From a virus (taxonomy: Duplodnaviria; Caudoviricetes): 64,000 nt of DNA. A program made the position numbers and the translations under genes. The notes under the pieces are model-generated. The model was given only the letters and a program-made list of their open reading frames with translations. It did not search any database and had not been told where the DNA came from. Location of the stretch: positions 1 to 64,000 of IMG/VR virus record IMGVR_UViG_2889049205_000001. One strand, written 5' to 3'. Below, piece by piece: positions 22,738 to 62,798 of the stretch (position 1 is the stretch's first letter; every line of letters begins with the position of its first letter).

Positions 22738-22761
22738 GTGGCTCACCCCTTCGTAAGAGTA

Positions 22762-22783
22762 GCCAGCACCCGAAGGTGCTGGC
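22762..22783 (-). terminator. Hairpin with cUUCGg tetraloop downstream of the secreted-protein gene
   Basis: GCCAGCACC-TTCG-GGTGCTGGC, perfect 9-bp stem, followed by TACTCTT. Confidence 0.6.
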
Positions 22784-22791
22784 ATGATTGT

Positions 22792-47900: not shown

Positions 47901-48173
47901 CTTTTTGACCTGGGCCAGTAGCGGCCGCAACTCATTGTTGATTGACTCCATATCCGGGAAAAACAGCGACAAATCGACCACGAGATCGAAATAGCCGCTG
48001 CCCTTAATAAAACTGCCCCGGCTCCGGAGCATATTAACTGTTTCATTTTTCATACGCTTGGTGACGGTGATGGCCGTGGGAGGCACGTAAAACTGCGTAT
48101 CGCCAATGCGCAAATGATGAGGGAGAAGACTCCCATAGAGGGAGTCCCGATCATCTATTCCTTTTGAGGCCAT
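41931..48173 (-). CDS. Baseplate hub / tail-associated lysin mega-fusion (~2080 aa): tube-initiator-like domains, degenerate lytic transglycosylase, gp27-like hub, GH73 glucosaminidase and M15-family metallopeptidase
   Basis: Hub-like RVHFRMGYG...MNGTITEL; GH73 LAAHAAWETGWG...NNMFGYGAYD...YATDKNWA; M15 ITSAYRP...WHGTGYGCD...HLHLS; SLT-like GIMRV...NIETGVAHL. Confidence 0.85.
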   Translation of the reverse strand: MASKGIDDRDSLYGSLLPHHLRIGDTQFYVPPTAITVTKRMKNETVNMLRSRGSFIKGSGYFDLVVDLSLFFPDMESINNELRPLLAQVKKCPFLPVQSMHLNDVYDIQAVSVAGITVSTVPGFPQAITANLQLYSFNPFVYIFNENDRTFDDLFNWPLFRWYYRRSLEPSEGRYTYFEPMRQEMTDQFKFKTAFEGDLDAIRRWRVDRDKMIKAWQDDMADKKYVDIEDFDGETLPFDELDEDLFNQNFDEHYKKAIFEYDITMEDWMFDDLHLTDLSISFQNVITSLQIQAHETPTHQYLGSQDTVIVARFRTDDSETLAQFDGMVRRANYLVREYHKEISNGFIQFDHPLANLFGVKFVVVQDVQSTTVEGQPGVFDIQLTLIAFNRAQKKLAETRLMNGDDAVWEIDGWRNSNAKLLIPFFGWASWLKDRPVFRDLAVKGYMDLDVKQKVLYEAKIKKNFTAVEIYPDLELPTYTEVAEAGFQIINNNDGFYVEPDFFLIYDDFVTVGQEAVDHLNSAFKSEARDTIGGTAVVDKASFKPDEKSKDYTAKLQTERAASKKPSVAQEAPEETNETNLTATEFESLIRQKTFQKMKDLTAAVAQQQTPLNPNPQTNVIKQSWAVAFAKSFDEKLRHFYATGYGANTSLGNVYVEKSNVPIMQTAEMKFFADTSFIREAAHIGIMRVSPIMGEPNSLGMNYEYNIETGVAHLQYYFNKVKTSNMISSYVYDAFGLNADKATDTERCYFAAAVCLYLGFETEYGRLYKSNKKLSYALVVQIKKMLTIIGQTKEWDEATIQKKVSELPVPDYKTASLQNATVYAKSDSVHEESDFEDEETTLREMFHDLEKYDRRGRLVRAFPSFFLMFVDEGQYMGTIKMSDRYFGYQAVTDIMYTNSRKVASSTLSLEMSNVYGSLSDGVKAMDLTHHGAWDLVQSLLAPGFAAKEAERSRNRDASFYKSIMLRTGARVHFRMGYGSNPMSMPTLMNGTITELQNNGESVSVVVQDDGIELTNKIKANPDDTTSGFIFSKKEPTEIVDALLRDDQGFFGNLKQAFSNADYAKHSLGIIHFGAPGRPADNLFGELTSRIMNEINMNVYEVTGKLNSEVGFWSRMGDFFGVGDADEPGININLYDKTVWDVLNITAAIGQDHVVAVHPFDFRSTIFSGKPTMPIAFGYHVDEDDNISLYRKTFRQFHVFDSWTNIMDNSITATEQNMYNVAIGTYYNEGKLDTTEPIYVDTNIWPEKLRTVNLDTTLNAQGIRLVQNIPLIGGWLNKPFKWYYDEGVAIKIAASGLKDHVKEMYDGYLTLVGEPAVKPFDQMLINDTWNSITGPAEVREVTQMMNMEFGFITMVKPDAVVVNSDQTQMNFMHSCYSIGTALTMTLVLRGILANPNYKGAFPIMNAAWGLIKRQYKKMTQTFKIDKGIDKLKEMLNVNPKPAAGTNIWEYDEVTGKWREYNPISEETRKKWKASGLLDDIIKTLDNLELSKMEDLFDKADDILSDNRILGYDKINITKIAKMRRITSKLAFTGAKIAGKSLRAGRWAVRGAVSATGVGIIPVLIETLVTEVALAGVAEYLERFLFTRQACMIATLQKDGYEFSAGINGHKGSVITDSPDLIQRIFTGKWQSVFFSFLGADVSKYAANQQATDAFDIPKVQTAGETSTDNLPYDPNVVVANFIQAHRRVVPYDEKFKARYEQEVIEAQEAYLKRVDSLDEENNRDSIYTVDPVAVPGQSGTGYANMDLNTPSGISAEAINKAFSGTPLAGLGQAFVAVETSIPPVRNPKTGQTVQIAGVINGLYLAAHAAWETGWGDSRIFRDKNNMFGYGAYDSSPYESAWTFDSKQHCINFAAQQIKRDYLLPDGKYFGGATLVGMNKKYATDKNWANGIAGIMRKIAMLDPNYKPPISASSADGVTVLGTQGSTKYRVQPAEAKSVLIDLKTQPLTNIRLTLVSESSLIRQASYNALERMGSLYKSRTGETMAITSAYRPGDPNWHGTGYGCDVDTPNAPYISGAYRFPKGSKEKRNLEILIDCAVETGFGGIIHGDVDVIATCKTKYPGTVITQRNDHFNHLHLSYIRG

Positions 48174-48185
48174 ATATAACACCCC

Positions 48186-51100
48186 TTACATGTGCTGCTC
48201 AACTTTATCCCGGTACCAGAGCCTCGAAAGGTTATTGGTGTTATCGGAATAGTTTACGGTCATGTTGGACTGACCTTGATATCCGCTCCGGCGCATCCCT
48301 TCTTGAACTAGGGATGACAGCCCTTGTTGCTGGTTTCCTTGCCCTCTAGCGCTAATCGAGACGTGCGCTCCGGAGCTGGGACCGCCGATCGGCGGTAAAG
48401 GTGATTGCGGCACTGGCGCTGCCTGTGGCGGCGGAGGCGGTGGAACCGGCCCAGTGTCATTACTAAGAATATTGTAACCCATTACACCACCTAAAGCTAG
48501 ACCGCCAAGCAAGGCAATTTTCTTGTTTCTTGAACCATTCGGTCCATTGAAGATGTTCTCTGGGATCCAACCGCCGGTCAGGTCGTGCATCATCTCCGGA
48601 ATAGCGCCAGCACGCTTCCCTCGAGCTTCGGATCCCATTACATTCGTTGGGTCCAGTTCGGGTTCGACATTTGGGATAGTCGGATCAATATCAGGCTCCG
48701 GAGCGGCGCCTACACCTCTTTTCATCCTGCCGAACATCCGTGTGAACTCATTAGAGGAAACCCGGTCGCCCTCTTCAAGATTACCGAAAATGGTGTCATG
48801 CACTCTTCGAAGACCTTCATTCTCCACATTAATTCCGGAGCTAGTACCAACACGGAAGCCGGAGTTGGCCAGATTGCCATTCAGGTTACGTGGCTTATCC
48901 AGTAGTCCTATCGCTTCATCGAGCCCGTGTTCTCTGGACCACATGCCGCCATAGCTCTCTTGATCGATCCGGCGCACCTTATTCCAGTCTGAAGCCAGGA
49001 AAGCGGATCGGAACTCGGACACCGGAGACTTCATATCTTCCGTGATCACTACACCGTCCTTTGCGGCGTCGATACCCTTCTGCTCCAAGGTGCTCCCGAA
49101 TTTCGAAAGGAACTTGTACTCATTCGATCCTGTTCCATACGTATGCTCAGCAAAATCTTGGATGGCCGAGTTTAAGTTTGAGATCGTACCGATCTGCGTC
49201 TTACCGATTTTGTTAGCCATTTCATTCGGCAAGTTCGGCTCCATCGGACGGATGACGGTTGTGTCCTGACCACTATACGATTTCACCGCTTCCCGCAGGT
49301 CATAATTCCGGCCGGATGTAGAGAGCTTCTTATTCCCCTCTTGCGTCAAGTAATCTCCCCAGCTGCTGTATCCGCCCATAAACTCGGCAGCCCGCTTATC
49401 TTTCAGAGCAGCCCATTCTTTCTGCACGTTGTCTTCGTCCACGTAAACCATGTGTAACTGGTCTCCGTCGGCATCCCCTTCGAGCTGGTCGCCCGTAAAG
49501 GCTGTCGTCAGCACGTTACCTGTCTTCAGCTTAGGATCGATAGCGATCCGTGTGAACTGGACGGCCGATTCGTGTTTGGATGGGTAACGGATCGTGAGCA
49601 CGTTCTTGTTCTGCTGCCGGTTCCAATCGGAGAGAATATCACTCTCTGCCGCTGTGCCAACATGCTGCTGGCCGATGATGTGCTCGTAGATGCCCATGTC
49701 CTTAGCCTGCTGCGTGGAGATGAACGTCATTTCTTCGCCGAGCATCGCCGAAGCTTCCGGACCCAGGAGCTTTAATGTGCCTGTACCCGATGACGGCATT
49801 TGCGCCTTCAGAGCTCTCTCTCCGGCCATCCCTTTAGAAGTCAGCGTGTCGGTGCCGAGTTGATTCACGTAGCTGTTGACGTTCCGCTGGATGTCTCGCA
49901 TATGCTTCAAGGCGCTGTCACGGCCGGTCTTGGATTTCGCTTCGCCATATTTCTTTATGCTGTCATTAATATTGGCGATCTGCCGCTGCAGCTTATTCAG
50001 GTGGACCAGGTCGCTCTGCCCGTCTCCCTGTAACTGCATGAACGGCACGAAAATCTTGTTGGTTTTGACTGCCGGGCTGTTCTTTCCGTTGATGTTGATA
50101 TCGACTTCTTCCGGAAGCCCCAGCCAGAATCCGTGTCCCAAATCCCGTTGATCTATACCAAGATTGTGGGCAACTGCCTGACGATCCATGATCGTATGTT
50201 TGACCGTGTTCTGGTCGAGCTCCACTTCTGGCATAAATGCGAACTCATGACCTTGAAGAATGCGGTCCTTATAGGGCTGCATTTCCGGAGCATCCGGATC
50301 TACTAGCGCTTTGATGGTGTGCGCCAAATTCTTAACGTCGCTCTGCTCAAAACGATTCTGCTTCTCCATTACGTTCCAGATATGCTCATAAGTCTGTGTG
50401 GCTCCCGATCTGCGAAGGTACCGCATCTCACGATGACCAATCGAAGTGCCATCTAAACCGTTTGCGTAAACTTTTGAGCCATCATTTGCGTTGCCGATTA
50501 CCGACCGTCCTGTTCCATCAACCGACTTGTAATACTGCCGATTGTGCATCATGCGGGTTTCCAGAATACCCGTGAATAATCCGGTGTTGGTTTGTAGCTT
50601 AGCGCCGACTTGATTGGCAATCTTGTGGAAGTCCTCAATATCAATCGGCGCCTGTCTGCTCACATCCATGAATGAACCGTTCTTGAACTCCAAGCCAATG
50701 CGGCCGAAGTCTATTTGCTCCAGCAGCTGATCCCGCTTCTTCCGATCCTGGTTCATGACATGATCGATAATCGTCTTGGCGTAGCCTTCCATCATCATCC
50801 CAAAGTCAGCACGCTTAGCTGGGTTCGGACTGATCATAGCACTGATCCCTTTGTCGCCCGTGATAGCTTCGATGAACCGAAGGCTTGGTGTAATAGCATC
50901 TGTCCCCTTCTCACCGGCAAATGAGAGCTTGAATGGTTTCTCCGACCACTCTACGCCAAATACCTGCGATCCGGTCCCCACAAGTTTGCCTGCATATCGG
51001 TTGTCGTGGCGAACATCTTCCCAAGCGCCATCGACCCATTTGCGCCCAATTACATCACCCGGCCTAACAGCCGCACCTTCGAGCCCCTGGCCACCGACAA

Positions 51101-54100
51101 CAAAATCGCTCCCCCTCGCTGCGGCACCATTGCTAGCGAAGTCTTTGTGCCACTGAAATGTTCCGTTTCCCTTATCATAGAAGTCCTGGTCCGTAACTGA
51201 CATTGAATCCATGAGTTCCTTAGCGATGACTGCTTGCTGCTCATAAACAGTCGGTATCCGGCGTGGATCGACCACTTCCTTGCCGCCTCGGTTTACGAGG
51301 ATGCCTTCTGACCGAAGCAGCCCACGGCCCTGTTCTGTATTCTGTAGATCCGTCACCCGTTTGTGAAGCTCCTCGTTAGTGATGTAGGCTACCTTGAGGT
51401 TTACTCCGGTCCGGGTCGGTCTTCCTTTTCCCTCTTGTTCTGATCGGTAGGCGGCGTTTATCTCTGTCTCGACCATTGGATTGAAGTTGGCGTAAGCGTC
51501 AATCTTCGAGAGACGGCCAGCCACCTCATCAGAGATCATGTACATATTTTGGGACTGAATAGCATTCGGCCGCCCCATGTTAGTGTAATGTCCGTACAGC
51601 GTCATGTCCCGCATGTCCATGGTGGACATTGAGCCCTGTTGAACTCGTCCGTCTTTTACTGACGATACGTACAGGTTGGGGGTGCCCCCATCCCAGCGAA
51701 CTCGGTTGTTCCAATCGCTCATGCCCATTCGTATCTGAAATTGCTTGCTCATGTTTACGTCATCGATCGTCAGGAGCTGCTTCACCTTGCGACTGCGATC
51801 CTTCGAGTCGTAATAGAAAGCAGAATCGTTCAGGTCCCCTTCGGACAACTCTTTGGATTCCAGCATGCTGTGCAACATGGCCGGCATGACGTTGATGTGC
51901 GATTGCTTCATGAAGTCGGATTTGTTGCCTGACCAATCGTAGGTGTCGTTGAAATTATAGATATCTCGCTGCCCGCCAGCCAGGTTTGAGATTGAATCTC
52001 GTAATGTCCGATTGCTCCGGTAGGACGCCTTTTCGTAATCATCTTCGTCCAGCGCTGACAAGATGCCGTCCATACCATGGGCGTATCGCATGCCAATGAT
52101 TTCGGCTGTGGACTTACGAACAGCAGAACCTTTGCCGTCCTGCTCCTTTTCCCATACCGCCACCGTGTGAGCGATCATCCGCTGCTTATTGAGCACCTGC
52201 ATACCATCCTGGTTGATCAGTGGGATCAAAATCTCAACAGCCCTCGGGTGTGTCTTTCCTTCGAGCAGCGCTTCTCGGACGCTTGTGCTGTATTGCGGCT
52301 TGTATACTGTGATCTTCGCCATAGGCGAGTTAATATCTTGATTTACGCTGAGGTCGTACATGATGTTGCGGCCGGAGTTATTCAGTGACTGCAGTACGCT
52401 CTCGACGGCGCCTCGGTTGTTTGCCTTTAGCCCCGACAGGTGATTTGTTTCCAAGGACTCGAAGAACATTTCGGCGTCCGCATGCAGATTAACTTTGCCA
52501 CCCATCGTAAAGGCCTGGCCTTGATAGCTCAGGGTTTTGCGAATCGCCTCTCCTACGATGCTTTGGTTTCTTGCCCCGGTGATTCTCGACATATCACGAG
52601 CTTCAAGCGATGTTGTTTCCGGCGACTCCAGCGGAATGTTCTTGCTGTGCAGGTCCATAGCGATGCGAACCACGGTATCATTGATTTGGCCATTGCTTTG
52701 TGCAATAATGCCGTACCGCTTCTGAAGCTCGGAACCAATTAGGCCATTTTCATGCAGTCCATTTATGAACTGTGTCATCCGGTGCTGCTGTGTCAGCGGG
52801 TTATTGGAATCGTCCTGCTGAATATATCTGCGGATCGCACGTTCTGTTTGCTGCACGGACTGCATGCTGAAGAATCGCTCATCCCCATCTACATTTAAAC
52901 GGAATCCTCGATTCTCCCATGATGCCATCTCACGAGCGCCTACGTGCCGGCCTGCAGCATCATCTCGGCTTACCCCTTGTGTGTACAGGCGCCATGCAAT
53001 ATCTCGCTGCTGCCGAGCAGCTGCTCGCTCTGATGACGTCATGCTGTCCAGGATCGGAATCTGTTGTTCAATAGTGCGGATCGCCTCCTGGAACACAGGC
53101 CGCTCGCTGCGCAGACGAGGCGCCATCCGGTAGAACAGCTTCTCTTCGTCAATATTGTGGCCCCACTGCAGCTGGCCGTTAGCAAAGCCCACCGGCTTAC
53201 TGTTGAAGTCGAGCATGCTGCGATAACTATCGTTGCTGCGGTACGGCTCGACCTCTGCTCGGATCTGAGCCTCATACTTAGAGTAGAGGCTATTCAATAC
53301 GTTAGGATCTGTAGATCCCATAGAGCTGTATTCGGCGAGCGCAAGCGCTTGTGCTTTGGCTGCGATATTCTTCTGCTTGGCGCCCAGACGCTTTTCGTAA
53401 TGCTCCGTGTTCTCGTACATCCGCTTGGCAGCATCGAATCCAGCAGTACGACTCTCGCCGCCGGCACCTGATAAACTGGACATCCGTTCGTATCTGCGGC
53501 GAGCAAGGTCGGTTTCTCGGATCCGTCGGATTTCTGCCTGCTCGTCCTTGCTCATGCCGTTTACGTTATGGAAGCGGCTTTGCACGAACTGGGCAATCTG
53601 ATGCATGGAGTTCGGGCCCTGCCGGGTCACGTAACTGTATCGGTCATTATCGGAATCGAAGAGTTCCAGCACATGGCCATTTATTACGCCCTTATCATCT
53701 GTCAGCTCACGGACGCCATTGACGGTGTACAAAGTGCGAGCATTGATGACCGTGCGATTCCAGGAGACATCGTGCATCGCCATCTTGCCATCTTCAAGCC
53801 TGGCTTGAAAATCGAGATTGTCATCTCCGTAGGCTGCGTAACCGTTTGAGGCGAACAGCTTATCGCCTTTCTTGAGCACTTCTTTCTTGTTCCAAGTGAA
53901 TTCGGATGGCCGGATATTCATGCCTTCCATGGCACCACGGTTTTTGGCCGCATTGATTTTGTTATGAACCTTTGGCAGCGTTTTGTTGATTACTCCACCG
54001 AGACCCCGCTCATCAACGTCGGCGATCGCCGCATGCGCATCATCGCCGTCAATCCCCAGTGTTCGTCTAACCTCATGCATGGACAGGTAGCCCTGCTGGA

Positions 54101-55109
54101 AATATCGCCCCTTCATAACACCTTTGCCGCCGAACTCTTGATGGAAGTCAACCGGGTTGGCGTAAGCTGTCTGCAGTACCCGGAAATAGTCCACATGATT
54201 TTGAGGGCGGGCAATGGTCTGGCCAGTCTTCTTGCCGAACCGGTCCAGTGTCTCCAAGTCGAAGTTCTCCCCGTTGTAGGAGAAGAATGTCTGATCGGCG
54301 TGGCCTTGAACGAAGGTACGGTATTTACGCATCTGGTTGGCGACGGAATGCTTGTCACTCAGGCCGACAAGGTTGTTATAGCCGGACTGGATATGATCCC
54401 GATACATGTCGAAATTGAGAATGAATTTCTGATAACTGTACCGACCATTCATATCCTCAAGGCTCTTGATGATCGTATTATGCGAAAGCGTAGACTCGTT
54501 TAGGTTCGCTGCCTGCAGACCGGCTCCCGAGAGTGTCGAGTAGCGCATAAGGTTAACGATGGATCGGCGCTCAGCGTCGCTCATGTTGTTGAAAGCGAAT
54601 TTGTCCATTTTGATCCGGCGGATCAGAGAATCCAGATAGAGCTGGCTTTCTTTGTCCGGCTTGACTAGGAGGCTCAATTGCCGCCGGTTGTCGGCTTTGA
54701 AAAGTCCATCTTTGGTCTTTTGGAAACCCTGAATCGCAATCTCTGGAACGTGCAGGCCTTTTCCTGATGCTTCATCCCCGAGAGACTCGATATCGAAGGC
54801 GTAAAATACGTTGCTCTGCCCGCTCATGAACTTCTGGAATGCCTCAACCTGCTTTTGTCCCAGCTGCTGATGTGGGCTGCTGAAGTTCTTCAAAATAACA
54901 CTACCGCTCGACTTGATCGTTTTCTGATCCAAGATCGGAGTGTCGTTGATGGCACTTAGTACCCGACTGACCCGATCCTCTCGAGTCGGGTCGTTATCGT
55001 ATGATGCCTTTCGGGTTGCATGGAATGACGATAGCAGCGACCATTGCTGTGAAGCAGGGGTGGCCATCGGAATCCCTGTATTGTCAAAACCGTTTATTTT
55101 GTCATTCAT
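48186..55109 (-). CDS. Single-polypeptide two-barrel (beta/beta'-like) DNA-dependent RNA polymerase fused to an N-terminal DEDDh exonuclease, with a C-terminal hydrophobic segment (2307 aa); putative virion RNAP
   Basis: Colinear beta motifs (GRPNAIQSQ, GVNLKVAY, KLSFAGEKG, ISPNPAKRADFG, GHREMRYL) followed by beta' motifs (SKGMAGERAL, VLTIRYPSKH, EGDADGDQL). Exonuclease motifs FDIES, YNGENFD and HAAIAD. Confidence 0.85.
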   Translation of the reverse strand: MNDKINGFDNTGIPMATPASQQWSLLSSFHATRKASYDNDPTREDRVSRVLSAINDTPILDQKTIKSSGSVILKNFSSPHQQLGQKQVEAFQKFMSGQSNVFYAFDIESLGDEASGKGLHVPEIAIQGFQKTKDGLFKADNRRQLSLLVKPDKESQLYLDSLIRRIKMDKFAFNNMSDAERRSIVNLMRYSTLSGAGLQAANLNESTLSHNTIIKSLEDMNGRYSYQKFILNFDMYRDHIQSGYNNLVGLSDKHSVANQMRKYRTFVQGHADQTFFSYNGENFDLETLDRFGKKTGQTIARPQNHVDYFRVLQTAYANPVDFHQEFGGKGVMKGRYFQQGYLSMHEVRRTLGIDGDDAHAAIADVDERGLGGVINKTLPKVHNKINAAKNRGAMEGMNIRPSEFTWNKKEVLKKGDKLFASNGYAAYGDDNLDFQARLEDGKMAMHDVSWNRTVINARTLYTVNGVRELTDDKGVINGHVLELFDSDNDRYSYVTRQGPNSMHQIAQFVQSRFHNVNGMSKDEQAEIRRIRETDLARRRYERMSSLSGAGGESRTAGFDAAKRMYENTEHYEKRLGAKQKNIAAKAQALALAEYSSMGSTDPNVLNSLYSKYEAQIRAEVEPYRSNDSYRSMLDFNSKPVGFANGQLQWGHNIDEEKLFYRMAPRLRSERPVFQEAIRTIEQQIPILDSMTSSERAAARQQRDIAWRLYTQGVSRDDAAGRHVGAREMASWENRGFRLNVDGDERFFSMQSVQQTERAIRRYIQQDDSNNPLTQQHRMTQFINGLHENGLIGSELQKRYGIIAQSNGQINDTVVRIAMDLHSKNIPLESPETTSLEARDMSRITGARNQSIVGEAIRKTLSYQGQAFTMGGKVNLHADAEMFFESLETNHLSGLKANNRGAVESVLQSLNNSGRNIMYDLSVNQDINSPMAKITVYKPQYSTSVREALLEGKTHPRAVEILIPLINQDGMQVLNKQRMIAHTVAVWEKEQDGKGSAVRKSTAEIIGMRYAHGMDGILSALDEDDYEKASYRSNRTLRDSISNLAGGQRDIYNFNDTYDWSGNKSDFMKQSHINVMPAMLHSMLESKELSEGDLNDSAFYYDSKDRSRKVKQLLTIDDVNMSKQFQIRMGMSDWNNRVRWDGGTPNLYVSSVKDGRVQQGSMSTMDMRDMTLYGHYTNMGRPNAIQSQNMYMISDEVAGRLSKIDAYANFNPMVETEINAAYRSEQEGKGRPTRTGVNLKVAYITNEELHKRVTDLQNTEQGRGLLRSEGILVNRGGKEVVDPRRIPTVYEQQAVIAKELMDSMSVTDQDFYDKGNGTFQWHKDFASNGAAARGSDFVVGGQGLEGAAVRPGDVIGRKWVDGAWEDVRHDNRYAGKLVGTGSQVFGVEWSEKPFKLSFAGEKGTDAITPSLRFIEAITGDKGISAMISPNPAKRADFGMMMEGYAKTIIDHVMNQDRKKRDQLLEQIDFGRIGLEFKNGSFMDVSRQAPIDIEDFHKIANQVGAKLQTNTGLFTGILETRMMHNRQYYKSVDGTGRSVIGNANDGSKVYANGLDGTSIGHREMRYLRRSGATQTYEHIWNVMEKQNRFEQSDVKNLAHTIKALVDPDAPEMQPYKDRILQGHEFAFMPEVELDQNTVKHTIMDRQAVAHNLGIDQRDLGHGFWLGLPEEVDININGKNSPAVKTNKIFVPFMQLQGDGQSDLVHLNKLQRQIANINDSIKKYGEAKSKTGRDSALKHMRDIQRNVNSYVNQLGTDTLTSKGMAGERALKAQMPSSGTGTLKLLGPEASAMLGEEMTFISTQQAKDMGIYEHIIGQQHVGTAAESDILSDWNRQQNKNVLTIRYPSKHESAVQFTRIAIDPKLKTGNVLTTAFTGDQLEGDADGDQLHMVYVDEDNVQKEWAALKDKRAAEFMGGYSSWGDYLTQEGNKKLSTSGRNYDLREAVKSYSGQDTTVIRPMEPNLPNEMANKIGKTQIGTISNLNSAIQDFAEHTYGTGSNEYKFLSKFGSTLEQKGIDAAKDGVVITEDMKSPVSEFRSAFLASDWNKVRRIDQESYGGMWSREHGLDEAIGLLDKPRNLNGNLANSGFRVGTSSGINVENEGLRRVHDTIFGNLEEGDRVSSNEFTRMFGRMKRGVGAAPEPDIDPTIPNVEPELDPTNVMGSEARGKRAGAIPEMMHDLTGGWIPENIFNGPNGSRNKKIALLGGLALGGVMGYNILSNDTGPVPPPPPPQAAPVPQSPLPPIGGPSSGAHVSISARGQGNQQQGLSSLVQEGMRRSGYQGQSNMTVNYSDNTNNLSRLWYRDKVEQHM

Positions 55110-55120
55110 ATCCCCACATC

Positions 55121-58100
55121 CTAAACAATGGAATCCATATTGTACTTCAGGTACGAGTCGATCTCACGGCTCCGGTCTTCTTGATAGTCCATATTGATTC
55201 GGGATCCACCGTCACTGGCCGGAGTCACGGTCACTTGCACGTCCCATAGACCCTGACCATTCAGAACTTCTCGGATGTTGCGCTGCATGTCCCTGTATCC
55301 TCTAAAGTTGCTTTTGCCCGGACCGTTTCCACCTTCGTACATGTCCGGCAGCATGGCAGCCGACTGGACATCATCATCCCAGAAGTTGTAGTCGCTCAAA
55401 TCGATGCCTGCATCTTGAACAGCTTTTACCTGGTAATCTTCCAGGTTTACGTCCGGCTGCCAGCCGACCCAATTCTCATCAGGCAAGAACTTATCCTTGA
55501 AGTATTCTTCCAGTGGAACTTGATCCTCCAGCTCGTAACCCCAAAGGGCTTTGAGGACCCGTCCTTCGTTGTCCGGAACCAGATCCAAAATCCGCTGCTG
55601 ATCTTGAAGTCTGGCTTCTGCGAACTCATTGAAGAACCATTTATCCTTATATGGCATGGACCGCATGACCTTCATCCGGTCTTCGTAAGGATCGACGGCG
55701 TAGAGAGTCGTTTCAGCCTGTTCCTTATAGTTCAGTGCTTGAAGCACGGCATTAGGCAGGTACATCTCGTCCCTATCTTCCGTGATTAAGTTGAGCTGTG
55801 CATTGATCTCAGCTTTTCGATCTTCCCATCCTGCAGGTTGGTTCAAGTAAAGGTTTCGTTTCTCGTCCTGCAGCTCTTGCCGCTTGGCCTTGTTCATTTC
55901 TTTTTTCATGTCCCGGTCGTTAGCGATCGCCTCAACATCAATTCCCTGCTGATGCAGCTCCTCCTTCGCCCTTTCGTACAGGCCGGAGAATTTCATATAT
56001 TTCAGAACATCGAAATACTCGTTGATGTCTTGCTCTTTACGGCGTCGTTCTGGAATCCAGGTTTCACCGGTCTGTGCCTCATGAGCTGATCGCCAAATAC
56101 TGCCGGCAGCGAAAGCGGCCGATGTGGCTCCCATGATCTTGAGATGCCGGAACCCGCTTTTTCCTCGTCCAAACATAAAAATGGCTGGAAGAGCTGAAAA
56201 CATGAGTCCCGCTCCAGCGGCGAACAACACATTACCACGGATACCGGATTGATAGGCTGGGACAACGTAGTCATCAACCATGAAGTTGTCCCACGTCGCC
56301 CAGTCCTTTCCATAGATGTGATCCCGCTCGTATTCTTCCAAAGCTGTTCGGACCGGGAGGAACTTGGAGTTGAGAAAGGTATCGGCGTGCGCCATGGTTT
56401 CCCACCGGCGTCCTTGCGCAATCTCGCCTTTTGTGAATCGGGCATGGACGCCTGCAGCCGTGAAATCCGTCTCATTCTCTCTCATCTGCCCGTTTCGAAT
56501 AATCGTTTGGTTAACATTTTCAAGCCCTTTGAAGACGACAGCTCGCATCGTATTATATGAATCGTCGGAGCTGCGTCTGGATGGATCAGCGCTGATCCCG
56601 ATCGTCACCTTGTCGCCAACCTTAAAGTAAGATTGGAGAACACCCTCAGCTTTGGCTTGATATTTCATGCCGGCAAGTCGAATCGGCGTATCCGGCATCT
56701 CCTCGGTAAGGAAGGTGTAATCATCAAGGAACTTAGACACCGTGACCTTTTGCTTCTCAATATCGTTGTCCTTGAACCGGTAATCCGTAAATTCATATTT
56801 CGCTTTTCGCTTGGATACCTGGTCCTTTATGATTGCAGCTTGTCGGCGCAGCTCTGTGTCCTTGTTGTTGTCCTCGACATAATCCTTCCAGTAGCGATAC
56901 TCGTCGCTCCACGGCGCCACGTCAGCCAGGATCTTGAACTTATCGAAAGCGCCATAGTTCCCTGTCTCATCCGGATGAAGTTGGTTTACTCGCTCATAGG
57001 CTTCGCCTGGGAGTCTGTACTCACCATGTGCAATCTTCTGGTACGGATCACCCGTCTGGAAGTTGATGAAATACCCGCCACCGGGCATCCAGTCTGGCAT
57101 CGTATTTCGGATCGGATTAAACGTATCGAGCTGGCCACTGTCTCTTCTGATAAAACGACGCATAATCTCGGATACATCGCCGCCAGCGCCGCCCAGGTTT
57201 GATTCCCAAAACGCATTGGAAATGTTGGTGGCCGCATCGGCTTTTTGAATGATCATCTTATTCTTGTAAGGATCTCCGCCAATCAGCTCTTCAGCTGCGT
57301 ATTTATAAATACCGAGCGGCTCTGTCCAGTTTTCAAAGGCTTCTTGACTCTGCCATTCGAGGCTCGTCGGGTCTTGCAGGTTCCGCAGTTTACGGTTGAC
57401 GACTTCCTGGCGATATACAAAATCTTGATCAAACATAGCCCGTGGCTTGGTGTCTACCGTTGGAACGGGCTCCGCAGCCATGGCGAACATTTTGTTGATT
57501 GGCATGTTTTGTTTGGCCACATTCGAAGGCACGTAGATGGTGCTACTCGTCGCCGCATCTTGCATGACATAGGCGCCGGTAGCCGATCCGTTATTATCCA
57601 GCTCATTGCTGATGAAGTACCTTGTCGGGTAGCTGCCGGCTTTAGATTCAGCGAGGCGGGCCTTGCCATCCTCAATGTTTGCCATGGCCTGACTGCTCAC
57701 AGTCTGCTGCGGCCGACTGCTGTCGAAATAGGCACCGTATTGGTCCGGGGTCGCTTGAACGACATGCTCCATTCGACCACCCGGCGACACCTTGGTTAAG
57801 ATCGGATCTGCCGGCCGTTCGGCCAATTGATCAGCCTGCTCCTGCACCAACACTGGATCACTCCAGTATTCAGTGTGCATCTGTCTAACTGGCTTCACGA
57901 CTTGGCCAAGCGCAGCGTTTCCGAGATCCCCAAAGACCATTGTGTTTGGGTTGAATAGCGATCCGGTAAGCATGTACGGCCGATCGTAATAGTGCTTGTT
58001 TTCCCACCAATATTTGTCCTCTTCGGAGTTGAACAAGTTGCGGGCAACGCCCAGCGGGTTCTCTAGTGTCGGGAACGCCGAGTGCTCCCAGCGCTCTTGC

Positions 58101-61057
58101 ATCGTAGAGGTCACGCTTGTGTACTCCCAGTCACTCATCGCAAGACGGTACGAGTTTGGTCTGAACTCAGTGATCCGCTCGCCCCGGTAAGCGCCCTTGG
58201 AGCCGAACAACCACCAGCGGCCTTTACGCACTTCGTCAGATCCGTTTTGGTAGTAATCGTACATTTCCTCTTGCGAATAGGCGTCTCGTTCATCTACCGG
58301 AGACCCGCCAGTTGCGATAAAGCCGGCAAGTCGGGTTGCGCTGGCTCGGCCAAACCCTGGAAGATATACTTCCGGACCGCCGCTGAAATGCTCTGCTCCT
58401 GGGTGGAGCATCATGCGTCGCTTGAGCACCTCGGTCTGACCAGTTGCATCACGGGCCGCCGCCTTGTTGAGCTCGGTTGTTGCCTTATATATTTCCCAGC
58501 GGTCTGAGATGCTCTGACCAGTTAACTGCTCGGACTTATCATCGATATAATCCGCATAGGTCGGGATCGCTACGACCGGCAGGAACCGCTTCAGCAGCAG
58601 TGAAGACCACATTTGCAGCCTATTCCCCATTGAAGCATCGGACAATCCCAGCCCTACGCTGCCAAGCGCATCTTGCAGACGGTATGGAATATAGGACATG
58701 TAAGCCGAGAACGTCGTATAATCTTCCATGTTGCGTCGCCCTGTTCTCGGGTCCCATTGTTTTGCGAAGTCCTTGATGCCGCTCCATGAGGAGAATTGAT
58801 TCATAAAACCATTTTCGAATGACATGTTAACGGCCAGGTAATCGTCACCGAACTCATTCACCGGCCGGCTGCCGGAGAACCGCTCCCACATTGGATTCGT
58901 CTTCTTGGTCATCCCAATGACGTGGGATCTAAATGCGGTGTCTCCTGTAAACAGGTTATTGACCCGCTCTAGTGCATCGTCGGTTGCCGAGTAGATCGTT
59001 CGACCTTCTCGAAGGAACTCATAATGCGCATAGAGGTCATTGGCTTCACGCATGTCTTTTCCACGGATGTCTCCACTTTTCTCGAGAGATCTCATAAGAT
59101 CACGGAAACCTTGCTTCGGCCCGGACTTCACTTCCATCATCTGACGGATGAGTTCCAAACTGACCTGCTGATTGATCTGATCCATACCGGTTTGAACCCT
59201 GGTATATTCGCCTGCCAGAAGGTTCGCCTCGCCGATCGGATTGATCCGGCCAAGCACGCCCTCTCGGTTCTGATCGAATTGCCGCCAGAGGTTCCGTATG
59301 CCTTCATTCGCACCTTTGGCCGCCGAATTGGATGATGAGAACGCACCGTTCCCTTGTGGAACTTTCATCTTCGGATTACCCAGGTACTCGAAGAGCTTGA
59401 GCATGTCATCGTCTCGGTTGAAGTTGATGTTGTTATCCTTGACGAATTTTTGGATATGCTGCGGCATATGGCTCTGGATCTGATTGAGCACACGAGGCGA
59501 AAAGCCGGATGTGTATTTCTCGAAATAACCACGGGCCTTGAAGAAGCCTTTGTAATCGACACCCTCTCGCACAGCCTTATCAATCATGTTCCGCTCCCAC
59601 TCCGGGTTGAAGAACTTGCCGGCGACACTGAACCATGCCTGCGCAGTGGTATCTTTGTTCTGATCGCCAAGGTCGAAGATCCGCTTAAACAGGTTTCGAT
59701 CTTTTCCTTCACTGCCCATGCCCGCTGTAGCACGAACCATCCGTGCCTGCGTGCCGAATTGTGATGAGGTCAGTCGGACCTTACGCTTCTTGTTAAGAAT
59801 TTCAAGGGGCTCATCTGCAGCTCCATTGTCGAAGAGGTTGTAGAAGCGGCCATTGAAATACATAGCTTCTTCCTTGAGCGTCTCATTGTTAGCCAGCCCC
59901 CTTTGCGCATTGAGGATTGGCTGGATGCCGCCTCGGTTAAACATCCGGAAAGGAGTATCTCGTCTAGCCTTCCTCGCATTCAGCACATCCCGCACATGGC
60001 CAATCCCGCCGAATATGGTCGGCGACCACCACTCCATCGTCCGTTCCTTAATGTCGTCAAAGGTTTTGTAGTCGAAGAAGTCATGTGCTTTGCCATCAGC
60101 ATTGATGCGGACATACAAATGCTCGTCGAATACGGCTTGTCCGAACTTCTGGTTGTTCGATCGGATACGCTCCAGGTTGATCTTCGTATCCGTGTCGATT
60201 TTCATGCGTCCGGAGCTGTTAAGCTCCAGGATATCATCGATTGTCGCTTGACGGTGGCCACGAATGGCCTCTTTAATGCCGCCTTGTTTGCGAGTGAGCT
60301 CATGCATTTCGCTCATGGCCAGGTCACGGAATTTACGCTGCATCCGATCAACACGAGCCTGCATCTGCTGTCCCTGCTGGTTGACGTTAAAGTTCCGGTG
60401 TGCTGCTCTTGCTTGGATTACCGCATCCTGAATGCTCTTATCCTCAATGCCTCCATGCTTTGCTAACGTCGCCCGGATCTCCCGGTCATGCGCATACTTC
60501 AATGAGAAATTGCCTTTGCTGATGTTACTGCGCTTGTGGAAGGCGGTGGTCACTTTATTAACGGTGTCTTCCGATAGTCCATGCTTACTACGCAAGTCAT
60601 CCATGATGGCATTGAACCGCATGCCTTCTTCGATATGCGAAGGAATCTCCCGGTCCACGAAGTTGTTCATTTGGCGGACGATCCGCTGCATATCGTATTC
60701 CCGATGAGTGCCCTGACGCATGGCTTCTGCCCGCTCCTGCACATTTGTACGGTAACGCTCACGGAACTCTCCATTTCGATGGACCACGTTCATCATGCCC
60801 CGGCCGTCCATCATGGCGACTTCCTCTGCAGCCTGCCGGGCAGCCTTGCCTTGCACCTCGATAAATTGTGCCATTCTGCGCATACCGCCCGTCCGGTGAG
60901 CAAGCGTCATAGCAATAGCACCAATTCCTACGCCAATTCCAACTTTGGCCAGCATCGGCATCTCCTGGCGTTCATCTTCAGATGCCAGGAATCGAGACAT
61001 CGGCCTAGTGTCTCGATCCAAGTATGCGGAAAACTGATTCTCTTGATCTTCTGGCAT
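55121..61057 (-). CDS. Tape-measure-like / ejected protein (~1978 aa) with hydrophobic segments and a degenerate thermonuclease (SNase)-like domain
   Basis: Follows the tail chaperones; largely helical; TM-like stretches at the N-terminus and near aa 1610-1660; VSKFLDDYTF...IRLAG...DSYNTMRAVVF...NVNQTIIRNG. Confidence 0.72.
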   Translation of the reverse strand: MPEDQENQFSAYLDRDTRPMSRFLASEDERQEMPMLAKVGIGVGIGAIAMTLAHRTGGMRRMAQFIEVQGKAARQAAEEVAMMDGRGMMNVVHRNGEFRERYRTNVQERAEAMRQGTHREYDMQRIVRQMNNFVDREIPSHIEEGMRFNAIMDDLRSKHGLSEDTVNKVTTAFHKRSNISKGNFSLKYAHDREIRATLAKHGGIEDKSIQDAVIQARAAHRNFNVNQQGQQMQARVDRMQRKFRDLAMSEMHELTRKQGGIKEAIRGHRQATIDDILELNSSGRMKIDTDTKINLERIRSNNQKFGQAVFDEHLYVRINADGKAHDFFDYKTFDDIKERTMEWWSPTIFGGIGHVRDVLNARKARRDTPFRMFNRGGIQPILNAQRGLANNETLKEEAMYFNGRFYNLFDNGAADEPLEILNKKRKVRLTSSQFGTQARMVRATAGMGSEGKDRNLFKRIFDLGDQNKDTTAQAWFSVAGKFFNPEWERNMIDKAVREGVDYKGFFKARGYFEKYTSGFSPRVLNQIQSHMPQHIQKFVKDNNINFNRDDDMLKLFEYLGNPKMKVPQGNGAFSSSNSAAKGANEGIRNLWRQFDQNREGVLGRINPIGEANLLAGEYTRVQTGMDQINQQVSLELIRQMMEVKSGPKQGFRDLMRSLEKSGDIRGKDMREANDLYAHYEFLREGRTIYSATDDALERVNNLFTGDTAFRSHVIGMTKKTNPMWERFSGSRPVNEFGDDYLAVNMSFENGFMNQFSSWSGIKDFAKQWDPRTGRRNMEDYTTFSAYMSYIPYRLQDALGSVGLGLSDASMGNRLQMWSSLLLKRFLPVVAIPTYADYIDDKSEQLTGQSISDRWEIYKATTELNKAAARDATGQTEVLKRRMMLHPGAEHFSGGPEVYLPGFGRASATRLAGFIATGGSPVDERDAYSQEEMYDYYQNGSDEVRKGRWWLFGSKGAYRGERITEFRPNSYRLAMSDWEYTSVTSTMQERWEHSAFPTLENPLGVARNLFNSEEDKYWWENKHYYDRPYMLTGSLFNPNTMVFGDLGNAALGQVVKPVRQMHTEYWSDPVLVQEQADQLAERPADPILTKVSPGGRMEHVVQATPDQYGAYFDSSRPQQTVSSQAMANIEDGKARLAESKAGSYPTRYFISNELDNNGSATGAYVMQDAATSSTIYVPSNVAKQNMPINKMFAMAAEPVPTVDTKPRAMFDQDFVYRQEVVNRKLRNLQDPTSLEWQSQEAFENWTEPLGIYKYAAEELIGGDPYKNKMIIQKADAATNISNAFWESNLGGAGGDVSEIMRRFIRRDSGQLDTFNPIRNTMPDWMPGGGYFINFQTGDPYQKIAHGEYRLPGEAYERVNQLHPDETGNYGAFDKFKILADVAPWSDEYRYWKDYVEDNNKDTELRRQAAIIKDQVSKRKAKYEFTDYRFKDNDIEKQKVTVSKFLDDYTFLTEEMPDTPIRLAGMKYQAKAEGVLQSYFKVGDKVTIGISADPSRRSSDDSYNTMRAVVFKGLENVNQTIIRNGQMRENETDFTAAGVHARFTKGEIAQGRRWETMAHADTFLNSKFLPVRTALEEYERDHIYGKDWATWDNFMVDDYVVPAYQSGIRGNVLFAAGAGLMFSALPAIFMFGRGKSGFRHLKIMGATSAAFAAGSIWRSAHEAQTGETWIPERRRKEQDINEYFDVLKYMKFSGLYERAKEELHQQGIDVEAIANDRDMKKEMNKAKRQELQDEKRNLYLNQPAGWEDRKAEINAQLNLITEDRDEMYLPNAVLQALNYKEQAETTLYAVDPYEDRMKVMRSMPYKDKWFFNEFAEARLQDQQRILDLVPDNEGRVLKALWGYELEDQVPLEEYFKDKFLPDENWVGWQPDVNLEDYQVKAVQDAGIDLSDYNFWDDDVQSAAMLPDMYEGGNGPGKSNFRGYRDMQRNIREVLNGQGLWDVQVTVTPASDGGSRINMDYQEDRSREIDSYLKYNMDSIV

Positions 61058-61216
61058 CTGTTGCACCTCGCTTATGGCAATGGGCAGCCGGCTTTTTCAT
61101 ACCAGATCTGGAAGAAGATCTCCCAGGCATCTTGAATGCACCATCTGCCCTCTCCGTATTTTCGATTCACCCTGGGGTCCTTATAGATCAGCGATATCTG
61201 CTCATGTAACTGCATA

Positions 61217-61383: not shown

Positions 61384-62205
61384 TCAATCAAATTCCCCTT
61401 TCAGCTGCTCTTCGGATGTGAACCACGACAGCTCAGGGAACATGTCGCCTGCGGGATTATTCTCTCTGGCCGGGTCAATCTGCTGCCCGCCTTGCGGGTG
61501 ACTGGCCATGGATTGCGTTAGCATGCGCATGGTTTCTTCCTCGGAGAGCTGGCTGCGCTGCGGTCCATTTCCCCGTTCTACTGGCCGACGTGGTGCGGGA
61601 GGTTCCTCCGGACGTGCCAGCGGCGAGTTCATTGCTCGCTCTTGTGGCGACATCATCGGCTGCTTTTGTGGCTGTGGCTGTTGTGGCGGCTGCTGCCCTT
61701 TTTGCTGAGCCAAAATAGCTTGTGCCTGCTGGTCAATTGGAATGATAGGGATCCCTCTTAACACCTGCAGCACATACTCGGCTCTGGCCGCATGCCACAT
61801 CGTTTTTGGAACAGTCCAATTTCCGATGTCCTCGATCTTGTATTCTGGGAAGGCTTCTTTGATGAGGCAATCTACTTGATTGTCGAATACCATCATCTCT
61901 TCTCGGAACTCATTTAGGATCTGCTGCGCCTGACCCATATGTAGACCCGATGCATCCAGGATCAAGTCGCATAGTGTTTCTGCGAAGCCGGCCCTGCCAT
62001 GTCCGAAATCAAAGTCAGCTGGCTCGAGCATGGCTGCTGCACAGATCGCTTCCTGAAAGTCTCCGATCGGCAAATCCTGAATAATAACCTGGCGATACTC
62101 TTCCCGGCCCAGCGGGCGAAAATAGAACTCGAACTCCAGCACAGGAACTTTATAGACGTCGTCATATTTATTCTTCCATTTTTGAATCTGCCGACTAGTA
62201 GCCAT
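61384..62205 (-). CDS. Tail assembly chaperone-like protein, long paralog (273 aa)
   Basis: IQKWKNKYDDVY...FYFRPLGREEY...AGFAETLCDLILDASG, plus a C-terminal extension; lies before the TMP-like gene. Confidence 0.7.
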   Translation of the reverse strand: MATSRQIQKWKNKYDDVYKVPVLEFEFYFRPLGREEYRQVIIQDLPIGDFQEAICAAAMLEPADFDFGHGRAGFAETLCDLILDASGLHMGQAQQILNEFREEMMVFDNQVDCLIKEAFPEYKIEDIGNWTVPKTMWHAARAEYVLQVLRGIPIIPIDQQAQAILAQQKGQQPPQQPQPQKQPMMSPQERAMNSPLARPEEPPAPRRPVERGNGPQRSQLSEEETMRMLTQSMASHPQGGQQIDPARENNPAGDMFPELSWFTSEEQLKGEFD

Positions 62206-62231
62206 GGATACACCTCTTTACATAGACAACA

Positions 62232-62252
62232 AGCAGGACGTAATGCCCTGCT
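62232..62252 (-). terminator. Hairpin between the two chaperone genes (possible partial terminator)
   Basis: AGCAGGGC-ATTAC-GTCCTGCT followed by TGTTGT. Confidence 0.45.
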
Positions 62253-62263
62253 CGCTGTGGTTC

Positions 62264-62758
62264 TTATAATTTAATTGGAGCCGCCTGCGCCACGAATCCG
62301 GATTTATCCATGATCATTTCGGCGAGCAAGCTTGGAATGCCGGCTTTGTCATTGCGCATCTTTTCACGAGAATAGTTTCTCGGGAAGAGAACGCATTTCT
62401 CCGTGTAGATTTCCTCACGGTCAAGCTGCGTTAAGGTGCGGTCAGCAATACATTCCTTGTATTCCGGACGTTCCAGTGTACGCCAGACGAAGACCTCATC
62501 ATCAAATGGTGTGAAATAAACACCACGATATTTCTCTTTCCATTGCTCCACTTCAAGTCGTGTCGGACCTTCTGGGAAGATTTCTGTTTCCAGTTCTTCC
62601 TGCGTGTACCCGTAGGCCACTACAATACGTTCGGCTTCCTGCTCATCCCCGGACGGCCCTGCTGCCGGTGCCTTATCCCCGCTCATGATCCCGTCTTCAC
62701 CTTCGGTGCGAGCACCATCGAAGAGGTCCGGTTGCTTTGGTCCCTGATTATCATTCAT
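62264..62758 (-). CDS. Tail assembly chaperone-like protein, short paralog (~164 aa)
   Basis: VEQWKEKYRGVY...FVWRTLERPEY...AGIPSLLAEMIMDKSG; start moved to ATG 62758. Confidence 0.72.
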   Translation of the reverse strand: MNDNQGPKQPDLFDGARTEGEDGIMSGDKAPAAGPSGDEQEAERIVVAYGYTQEELETEIFPEGPTRLEVEQWKEKYRGVYFTPFDDEVFVWRTLERPEYKECIADRTLTQLDREEIYTEKCVLFPRNYSREKMRNDKAGIPSLLAEMIMDKSGFVAQAAPIKL

Positions 62759-62776
62759 TGCTTTTATCCCCCTAAC

Positions 62777-62798
62777 GTAATGCATTACACTATAACAA
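62777..62798 (-). promoter_or_regulatory. Extended -10 element (TG-T-TATAGT) followed by the perfect palindrome GTAATGCATTAC
   Basis: Read directly in the intergenic region upstream of the chaperone gene. Confidence 0.5.

Follow-up and report, generated by a model that had tools for sequence, protein, structure and literature searches.

The window analysed here, a stretch of 64,000 nucleotides (positions 1 to 64,000 of IMG/VR record IMGVR_UViG_2889049205_000001), belongs to a Bacillus-type jumbo phage of ~229 kb with a contractile tail, and contains part of its tail module. At the centre of the region of interest we find a single open frame on the minus strand, which translates without a stop to a protein of 2307 aa (hereafter P0001) and is preceded by a Shine-Dalgarno-like GGGGA located 4 nt upstream of the ATG, directly after the stop of the upstream gene. 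The features of this gene and its neighbours are as follows:

48186..55109, minus strand: whole 2307-aa ORF (P0001), with an N-terminal exonuclease, a ~750-aa region of unknown fold, an RNA polymerase core (two-barrel, the beta-type barrel by motif only), a TM helix and a conserved C-terminal tail
53925..54872, minus strand: predicted DEDDh (DnaQ-fold) 3'-5' exonuclease domain, aa ~80-395
54777..54797, minus strand: ExoI motif FDIESLG, aa 105-111 (D106, E108)
54303..54653, minus strand: predicted helical insert between ExoI and ExoII, aa ~153-269, with near-invariant Y190 and G243
54258..54278, minus strand: ExoII motif YNGENFD, aa 278-284 (N279, D284)
54018..54035, minus strand: ExoIII motif HAAIAD, aa 359-364 (H359, D364), of the 'h' subtype
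50400..51602, minus strand: beta-like module, aa ~1170-1570 (R1180-x-N1182, K1394...GEK1401GT, GHRE1561M), assigned by motif only
49050..50192, minus strand: beta'-like module, aa ~1640-2020, with RYPSKH (49572-49589) and the catalytic DADGD (49461-49475)
48189..48518, minus strand: C-terminal hydrophobic helix (aa 2198-2215), Pro-rich stretch and family-conserved tail (aa 2286-2307)
55121..61066, minus strand: upstream 1981-aa giant, homologue of gp145 of Bacillus phage 0305phi8-36
41931..48182, minus strand: downstream 2083-aa giant with a C-terminal glucosaminidase, homologue of 0305phi8-36 gp147 (hub with lytic domains)
61384..62785, minus strand: two tail-chaperonin genes (273 and 173 aa), homologues of 0305phi8-36 gp144 and gp143

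The initial annotation of this region had proposed, from the sequence alone, an intact DEDDh 3'-5' exonuclease with a long insert between ExoI and ExoII, fused to the N-terminus of an RNA polymerase, and our analysis confirms this observation, with the three motifs placed where it had put them. Searches with the single sequence of P0001 were, however, hardly informative: Pfam offered only RNase_H_2 (E 0.016, 16.6 bits against a cut-off of 22), PHROGs gave no match, a phmmer search of PDB resulted in a chance hit to arsenate reductase, and tblastn against 50,697 phage records found no match, whereas a profile of the whole protein built from 4 sequences gave nothing in PDB. In the same way, a first AF2 model based on 4 sequences was poor (pLDDT 58) and its fold matches were weak (Foldseek E ~5e-3, VIA Z 8.5). 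In 49 relatives with 17-64% identity, residues D106, E108, D284, H359 and D364, together with E123 and D307, are invariant, and in 52 full-length relatives aligned with FFT-NS-2 they are at least 90% conserved, on a par with the polymerase catalytic aspartates, N279 being also at least 90% conserved. The AF2 model obtained with the 49-sequence alignment (pLDDT 92.5, pTM 0.90) superseded the first one and aligns to the exonuclease domain of E. coli epsilon (1j53) with a Z of 14.9 and an rmsd of 2.5 A over 166 of 174 residues, followed by ExoI (14.6), 3'hExo (13.8) and DinG-N (13.5), and all the top 50 matches among 48,161 chains are DnaQ-fold exonucleases. Foldseek likewise gives TREX1/RNase T (E 4e-4, prob 1.0). 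Such an agreement is far beyond chance. The spacing between ExoI and ExoII is 176 residues, against what would be about 89 in E. coli epsilon, and the extra ~85-120 residues are helical in the model. Among 49 relatives, 20 hit the Pfam family RNase_H_2 (best 3.5e-7) and 13 hit RNase_T (best 3e-9), with PolB_exo hits also present, and the ExoII motif aligns to the YNGDxFD of archaeal PolB exonuclease domains. The nearest cellular sequences, through weak direct profile matches, are the exonuclease domains of PolC and DinG of Bacilli, although the family profile finds no cellular DnaQ-type protein among 1.8 billion representatives at E <= 1e-3.

Regarding the C-terminal half, the premise that it corresponds to an RNA polymerase is supported for the beta'-type barrel. 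A family profile of the core matched 113 chains of RNA polymerase largest subunits in PDB, with NRPE1 as the best one (E 7e-6), followed by others such as ASFV RPB1 (3.5e-5) and the phiKZ and bacterial beta' subunits, the alignment covering RYPTFH...DSDGD. Residues R1841, P1843, D1879, D1881, G1882 and D1883 are invariant, and a DxDGD motif is found at ~80% of the length in 49 of 52 relatives. In the case of the beta-type barrel, the assignment rests on motifs only: the residues listed above are at least 90% conserved in 52 relatives, but a profile of aa 1150-1600 gave no meaningful hit in PDB. A feature search of the ESM Atlas with the intervening region (aa 395-1170) gave no usable hit either.

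The fusion does not result from an assembly artefact, as the same N-terminal position of the exonuclease recurs in about 50 independent clusters. Moreover, both domains are part of one gene in all 63 full-length relatives examined (2045-2730 aa), including those of three cultured Bacillus jumbo phages, vB_BceM_WH1 (gp095; exonuclease E 2.7e-49, core E 5.6e-69), Edson and KLEB27-3. Even P0081, a relative with a shorter insert between ExoI and ExoII, was shown by unfiltered hmmsearch and Pfam to keep an intact but divergent DEDDh domain. A survey with the polymerase core as a query found none among proteins of 473-1507 aa and covered longer proteins only in part, which is weak evidence that stand-alone cores do not exist. 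The opposite situation seems to occur in the Moorella phage MTATph1, which keeps in this slot an intact exonuclease domain (CDS0027, also with a shorter insert) and the C-terminal tail (CDS0031) without any polymerase core, although this gene is interrupted by an IS21-like element and may be decaying.

The genomic context points to the tail module and not to the replication module. The order of genes is the chaperonins (phmmer E 1e-17 and 3e-29), the gp145-like giant (E 4e-183), the gene of P0001, the gp147-like hub (E 2.6e-87, with its glucosaminidase matching PF01832 at E 2.7e-13) and a gpJ-like baseplate protein, and the same order holds in Virgibacillus, WH1 and a Logan contig. This is the slot annotated as tape measure in phage 0305phi8-36, where the two flanking giants and the slot protein itself, gp146, were found in virions by mass spectrometry according to the record. 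Despite its similar size (2537 aa), gp146 is not detectably homologous to P0001, since it shows no DxDxD motif, no exonuclease match and no match to the family profile, and consequently the mass spectrometry evidence transfers by position only. In this regard, Hardies et al. noted that the slot gene in the related elements BtI1/BwK1 aligned with gp146 only over the last 60 residues (PMC2147016). WH1 gp095 is annotated as 'virion structural protein', without a stated basis.

Two-barrel RNA polymerases, from bacteria to Pol II, are thought to correct or rescue transcripts at their own active site with the help of Gre/TFIIS-type factors, whereas a covalently attached DnaQ-type exonuclease is the hallmark of DNA polymerases. 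In the literature searched, we found no description of a DnaQ-type nuclease fused to a two-barrel RNA polymerase, although an automatic IMG name given to a relative, 'predicted PolB exonuclease-like 3'-5' exonuclease', shows that annotation pipelines can see the domain. The closest precedents are virion polymerases. Gp96 of the Thermus phage P23-45 (PMC10770324) is a single-chain two-barrel RNA polymerase with DxDGD, embedded in a giant tape-measure protein, followed by a membrane segment, made late with structural proteins and responsible for the transcription of pre-early genes. It is, however, a 5002-aa protein with a metallopeptidase from a siphovirus, and no exonuclease domain is mentioned in that work. 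Gp66 of the crAss-like phage phi14:2 (bioRxiv 10.1101/2020.03.07.982082) is also a single-chain two-barrel enzyme of ~2200 aa, encoded by one of three adjacent giant genes and delivered with the virion, which transcribes single-stranded or denatured DNA well and double-stranded DNA poorly, a preference for ssDNA shared by the related QDE-1. Gp66 carries a DFDID motif (Ile/Val at position 4) and a cleft-blocking domain, its other ~1600 residues have no known homologues and no nuclease is described, whereas P0001 has DADGD and its relatives DxDGD, the host phyla differ (Bacteroidota against Bacillota), and no match to the gp66 chain in PDB was found by sequence or profile. With respect to the DnaQ-type domains of epsilon, PolC, DinG, ExoI, TREX1 and RNase T, P0001 has the same fold (Z 13-15) and motifs, with His as the general base, but it carries the helical insert with its own near-invariant residues and is attached to an RNA polymerase, not to a DNA polymerase or helicase. 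A DEDDh exonuclease serving an RNA-synthesising polymerase would be also known in the coronavirus nsp14 ExoN and nsp12 pair, but as separate mature proteins, with an RNA-dependent polymerase of right-hand fold and without any sequence relation.

Altogether, we are highly confident that a real, selected and probably active DEDDh exonuclease is fused to an RNA polymerase of the two-barrel type (the beta-type barrel by motif only), in a lineage of ~200-kb jumbo phages of Bacilli, which also revises the annotation of the 'tape measure' or 'structural protein' slot in this group. The functions suggested in the initial annotation (transcript editing, end resection, counter-defence) are not decided by these data, and no activity, substrate or virion presence has been measured for any member of the family. 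From its position, we infer that the protein is packed in the tail or virion and enters the cell with the leading DNA end, as shown for gp96, which we regard as somewhat more likely than not. More tentatively, in the reading we favour among those considered, the exonuclease, inferred to be Mg-dependent, might then digest the 3'-ended strand of the incoming linear DNA, or DNA at nicks, exposing a single-stranded template to be transcribed by its own polymerase into the first phage RNAs. If so, it would explain how an injected polymerase that prefers ssDNA can start on a freshly ejected duplex genome, a problem that is open for crAss-like virion polymerases and that phage N4 solves differently. 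The similarity to PolC, DinG and PolB exonucleases leans towards DNA as the substrate, although DEDDh fold neighbours include RNases as well as DNases at similar Z. The same replicon also contains 15 co-oriented hairpin-plus-ATTC motifs (65 per Mb against 1-4 per Mb elsewhere), and promoters of this kind appear to work in single-stranded form in phage N4. These motifs, however, span 56 kb, too far for plausible resection, and may belong to a second polymerase; a candidate one (C3 99362-103045) had no Pfam, PDB or phage match. Moreover, a 3'-5' exonuclease leaves the 5'-ended strand, on which transcription would run towards the resected end, so only genes pointing at that terminus would be served, and no terminal repeat was found in the contig to indicate the genome ends. 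The exonuclease of MTATph1 without polymerase argues as well that the nuclease can have a role of its own.

Among the alternatives, an unlikely but possible one is the editing of RNA 3' ends, where the exonuclease would remove misincorporated or backtracked nucleotides of the nascent transcript, or trim transcripts, standing in for the Gre/TFIIS-assisted cleavage that minimal single-chain polymerases lack, by analogy with the proofreading domains of DNA polymerases and coronavirus ExoN. A polymerase plus a DEDD exonuclease is the classic proofreading layout, its universal conservation in the family is what would be expected for two cooperating activities, several fold neighbours are RNases (3'hExo, ERI2, REXO2, RNase T), and some relatives hit the Pfam exoribonuclease family Rv2179c-like. 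On the other hand, about 750 residues of unknown fold separate both domains, the transcription of a few early genes gives little obvious selection for fidelity, MTATph1 keeps the exonuclease without the polymerase, and the nearest sequence relatives are DNA-polymerase-type exonucleases. Were editing the actual role, this would be the first dedicated proofreading nuclease on a DNA-dependent RNA polymerase. Taken more broadly, that a cellular-type polymerase uses its own nuclease in cis, either for making its template or for proofreading nascent RNA, seems about as likely as not, and either use would be a mode of transcription not described for any two-barrel RNA polymerase.

Equally unlikely appears a role in counter-defence or host takeover independent of transcription, through the destruction of host or defence nucleic acids (3'-ended DNA, small RNAs or oligonucleotide signals) or, alternatively, through the processing of the phage genome ends for annealing of terminal repeats. 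A tail-delivered protein would be among the first ones in the cell, MTATph1 indicates that the nuclease is a separable module, and DEDDh enzymes such as TREX1, Cap18, Orn and T4 DexA, which act in such roles, are found among the fold matches. This reading does not explain, however, why every full-length relative keeps the nuclease on the polymerase chain, and we considered it without a search of PADLOC, a set of anti-phage defence protein models. Very unlikely is the possibility of a DNA polymerase or primer-extending enzyme with its proofreader, because although exonuclease-polymerase fusions are otherwise a hallmark of DNA polymerases and archaeal PolD shows that the two-barrel fold can make DNA (PMC4996933), the core profile matched RNA polymerase largest subunits, the motif is the RNA polymerase-type RxP(S/T)xH ... 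DxDGD, and the gene is located in the tail module. Just as improbable is a structural or nucleic-acid-binding module without catalysis: inactive DnaQ-fold domains do exist, as in DNA polymerase alpha and ESRP1, which appear among the fold matches, but inactive homologues typically lose the catalytic residues that are invariant here in relatives sharing as little as 17% identity.

The fusion is encoded by a single ORF on the minus strand, whose ATG is preceded by a GGGGA Shine-Dalgarno-like sequence, 12 nt after the stop of the upstream 1981-aa gene. The initial annotation, which placed an intact exonuclease domain at 53980-54830, correctly described its three motifs, as FDIESLG (D106, E108), YNGENFD (D284) and HAAIAD (H359, D364) are all present at the residues it gave and are covered by that interval. 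The parts of the protein are as follows:

Window 48186-55109, minus strand: the whole 2307-aa ORF
Window 53925-54872, minus strand: DEDDh exonuclease domain as delimited by the structure model, aa ~80 to ~395
Window 48189-48518, minus strand: C-terminus with a hydrophobic helix (aa 2198-2215), a PPPPPP stretch and a 22-residue tail (aa 2286-2307)

On its own, the sequence is nearly invisible to the libraries: Pfam gave RNase_H_2 at E 0.016, whereas PHROGs and PDB gave nothing, and a word-indexed search found only three relatives. It was a profile of these, run against 1.84 billion cluster representatives, that found 66 proteins, about 50 of which are 2100-2730 aa long and carry the domain at aa ~70-430, while no ordinary cellular DnaQ protein reached E 1e-3. 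In an alignment of 49 of these domains (17-64% identity to the query), the invariant columns are D106, E108, E123, D284, D307, H359 and D364, and G111, Y190, G243 and N279 are at least 90% conserved. Moreover, across 52 full-length proteins, 11 of the 38 positions that are at least 90% conserved lie in this domain, which puts them on a par with the catalytic aspartates of the polymerase. When the 49 relatives were scanned one by one, 20 hit Pfam RNase_H_2 (best 3.5e-7), 13 hit RNase_T (best 3e-9) and others hit the PolB exonuclease families.

Structure prediction pointed in the same direction. A first AF2 model based on 4 sequences was poor (pLDDT 58), but the 49-sequence alignment gave pLDDT 92.5 and pTM 0.90. 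An exhaustive structural comparison of this model against 48,161 chains put the E. coli epsilon exonuclease domain first (Z 14.9, 2.5 A, 166 of 174 residues), followed by ExoI (14.6), 3'hExo (13.8) and the S. aureus DinG N-terminal nuclease (13.5), and all 50 top rows are DnaQ-fold. Foldseek agreed, with TREX1/RNase T at E 4e-4 and prob 1.0, and so did BFVD and the ESM Atlas, which gave PolC-type and RNase_T clusters. The long insert noticed in the initial annotation is real: ExoI and ExoII are 176 residues apart, and the extra stretch (aa ~153-269) is a confidently modelled helical bundle. In 400 sampled genomes of the host's class, the weak matches of the profile fall in open frames of ~1440 and ~900-950 aa, covering the ExoII-ExoIII half, which we take to be PolC and DinG, so the nearest cellular kin appear to be DNA-directed exonucleases.

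With regard to the rest of the protein, a DxDGD motif sits at ~80% of the length in 49 of 52 full-length relatives, some of which have the canonical DFDGD or DYDGD. A 49-sequence profile of aa 1279-2139 matched 113 PDB chains, among them RNAP largest subunits such as plant Pol V NRPE1 (E 7e-6), ASFV RPB1 (3.5e-5), the phiKZ non-virion RNAP (1.3e-4) and bacterial beta'. The alignment runs through RYPTFH...DSDGD, the counterpart of NRAPTLH...NADFDGD, and residues R1841, P1843, D1879, D1881, G1882 and D1883 are invariant. The beta-type half, however, is supported only by conserved motifs (R1180-x-N1182, K1394...GEK1401xT, GHRE1561M). The enzyme is not a crAss-type gp66, a family that has DFD(I/V)D and for which no exonuclease is described.

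The fusion is conserved in everything that could be examined. All 62 full-length proteins found through the exonuclease profile also match the RNAP-core profile, although the sample is biased, because most members were found through the exonuclease and the survey based on the core was crowded out. The one protein found through the core alone, P0081 (2045 aa), turned out to have a divergent but intact DEDDh domain (FDFETIG, AHNSRFD, THRAKDD), and the shorter hits are consistent with fragments from short contigs. Full-text literature searches found no description of a DnaQ-type nuclease on a two-barrel RNAP, and the jumbo-phage survey of Iyer et al. lists an HD-domain fusion and YonO-like enzymes but not this one, although the name given by an IMG pipeline shows that the domain has been flagged automatically in one relative. 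Both components are of known kinds, and polymerase-exonuclease fusions are classic for DNA polymerases; what differs here is the conserved attachment of such a nuclease to a phage RNAP.

The window is the first 64 kb of a separate 228.8-kb contig (C3, 50% GC) in a 7.5-Mb, 3-contig genome (G000), beside a 7.05-Mb chromosome (55% GC) and a 246-kb contig (47% GC). The contig encodes large terminase, portal, prohead protease, major head protein and two sheath paralogues, and the window holds a gpJ-like baseplate protein and many fibre-like proteins with carbohydrate-binding domains. It is therefore a jumbo myovirus genome, whose sheath is distantly related to those of Moorella phage MTATph1 and Bacillus phage 0305phi8-36. 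The local gene order matches that of 0305phi8-36: tail chaperonins (gp143/144 homologues), a gp145 homologue (E 4e-183), the exonuclease-RNAP gene, a gp147 hub/lysin homologue (E 2.6e-87) and then a gpJ homologue. In 0305phi8-36 the middle slot holds gp146, annotated as tape measure and detected in virions (PMC2147016), which has no exonuclease, no DxDxD motif and no match to the family profile.

Relatives of the exonuclease-RNAP protein sit in the same slot in a 198-kb Virgibacillus contig and in a Logan contig. They also occur in the cultured Bacillus phages vB_BceM_WH1 (gp095, 'virion structural protein'), Edson and vB_BauM_KLEB27-3, and for WH1 gp095 both domains and all catalytic residues were verified. 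Named sources are Oceanobacillus, Alicyclobacillus, Virgibacillus and Bacilli MAGs, with longest contigs that are repeatedly 194-213 kb, and strong matches were found in 3 of 401 sampled species genomes of the class, G000 included. Relatives are likewise ~195-213-kb contigs in isolate assemblies of Bacilli, which suggests extrachromosomal carriage (phage-plasmid or carrier state) rather than integration. A different situation is found in MTATph1 (OR602862.1, 12513-19869), where the slot gene CDS0027 has an 830-aa N-terminal extension followed by an intact version of the same DEDDh domain at aa 832-1065. The gene is then interrupted by an IS21-like element (a transposase/IstB pair), a downstream ORF (CDS0031) ends with the TM/Pro-rich/conserved tail of the family, and no RNAP core is present.

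How the protein works can only be inferred from an intact and strongly selected DEDDh domain and a beta'-type RNAP barrel joined in one polypeptide, the product of a tail-module gene. Its C-terminal tail, the most conserved 27-residue block of the whole protein across the family, may be a tail-tip or hub docking signal, or a membrane-insertion signal. By analogy with P23-45 gp96, a tape-measure-fused RNAP that transcribes pre-early genes, we infer that the protein is built into the tail or virion and enters with the DNA. The crAss virion RNAP and QDE-1 transcribe ssDNA far better than dsDNA, and the nearest sequence kin of the nuclease appear to be DNA exonucleases. We therefore favour, although only tentatively, a model in which the nuclease resects 3' ends of the entering DNA to give the attached polymerase a single-stranded template. 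In such a model, transcription on the surviving strand runs towards the resected end, so the earliest genes should point at the first-entering terminus. Less likely, but still possible, are RNA 3'-end proofreading or trimming and, to a similar degree, an independent counter-defence or end-processing nuclease, the latter favoured by the arrangement in MTATph1. A DNA-polymerase reading and an inactive fold are both very improbable.

Other features of the same replicon are as follows:

C3 103247-158955, plus strand: 15 co-oriented copies of a short hairpin (4-5 bp stem that co-varies, CTRTCG centre) followed by ATTC
C3 99362-103045, plus strand (locus L004:363-4046): a 1227-aa ORF with ADNDGD at aa ~703-708
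Window 41931-48182, minus strand: the 2083-aa hub-like giant, with a glucosaminidase domain at aa ~1799-1899
Window 23-39375, minus strand: a long run of tail-fibre-like genes, including a 2193-aa PA14/Big_1 protein at 16204-22785

The hairpin motifs, none of which occurs on the minus strand, reach a density of 65 per Mb against 1-4 per Mb on the other two contigs. They resemble N4-type single-strand promoters and are candidate promoters for a phage RNAP, but they span too much DNA for resection and may serve a second polymerase. The 1227-aa ORF lies just upstream of the hairpin-motif region and may be a second (non-virion) RNAP, although no Pfam, PDB or phage tblastn match was found for it. 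As for the hub-like giant, its counterpart in Virgibacillus has a lysozyme-like domain and that of the Logan contig has LysM, so lytic modules are swapped on a conserved scaffold. Finally, the run of tail-fibre-like genes is rich in F5/8 type C (discoidin), laminin-G, CBM35, Big and PA14 domains, so the host-recognition apparatus is unusually large.
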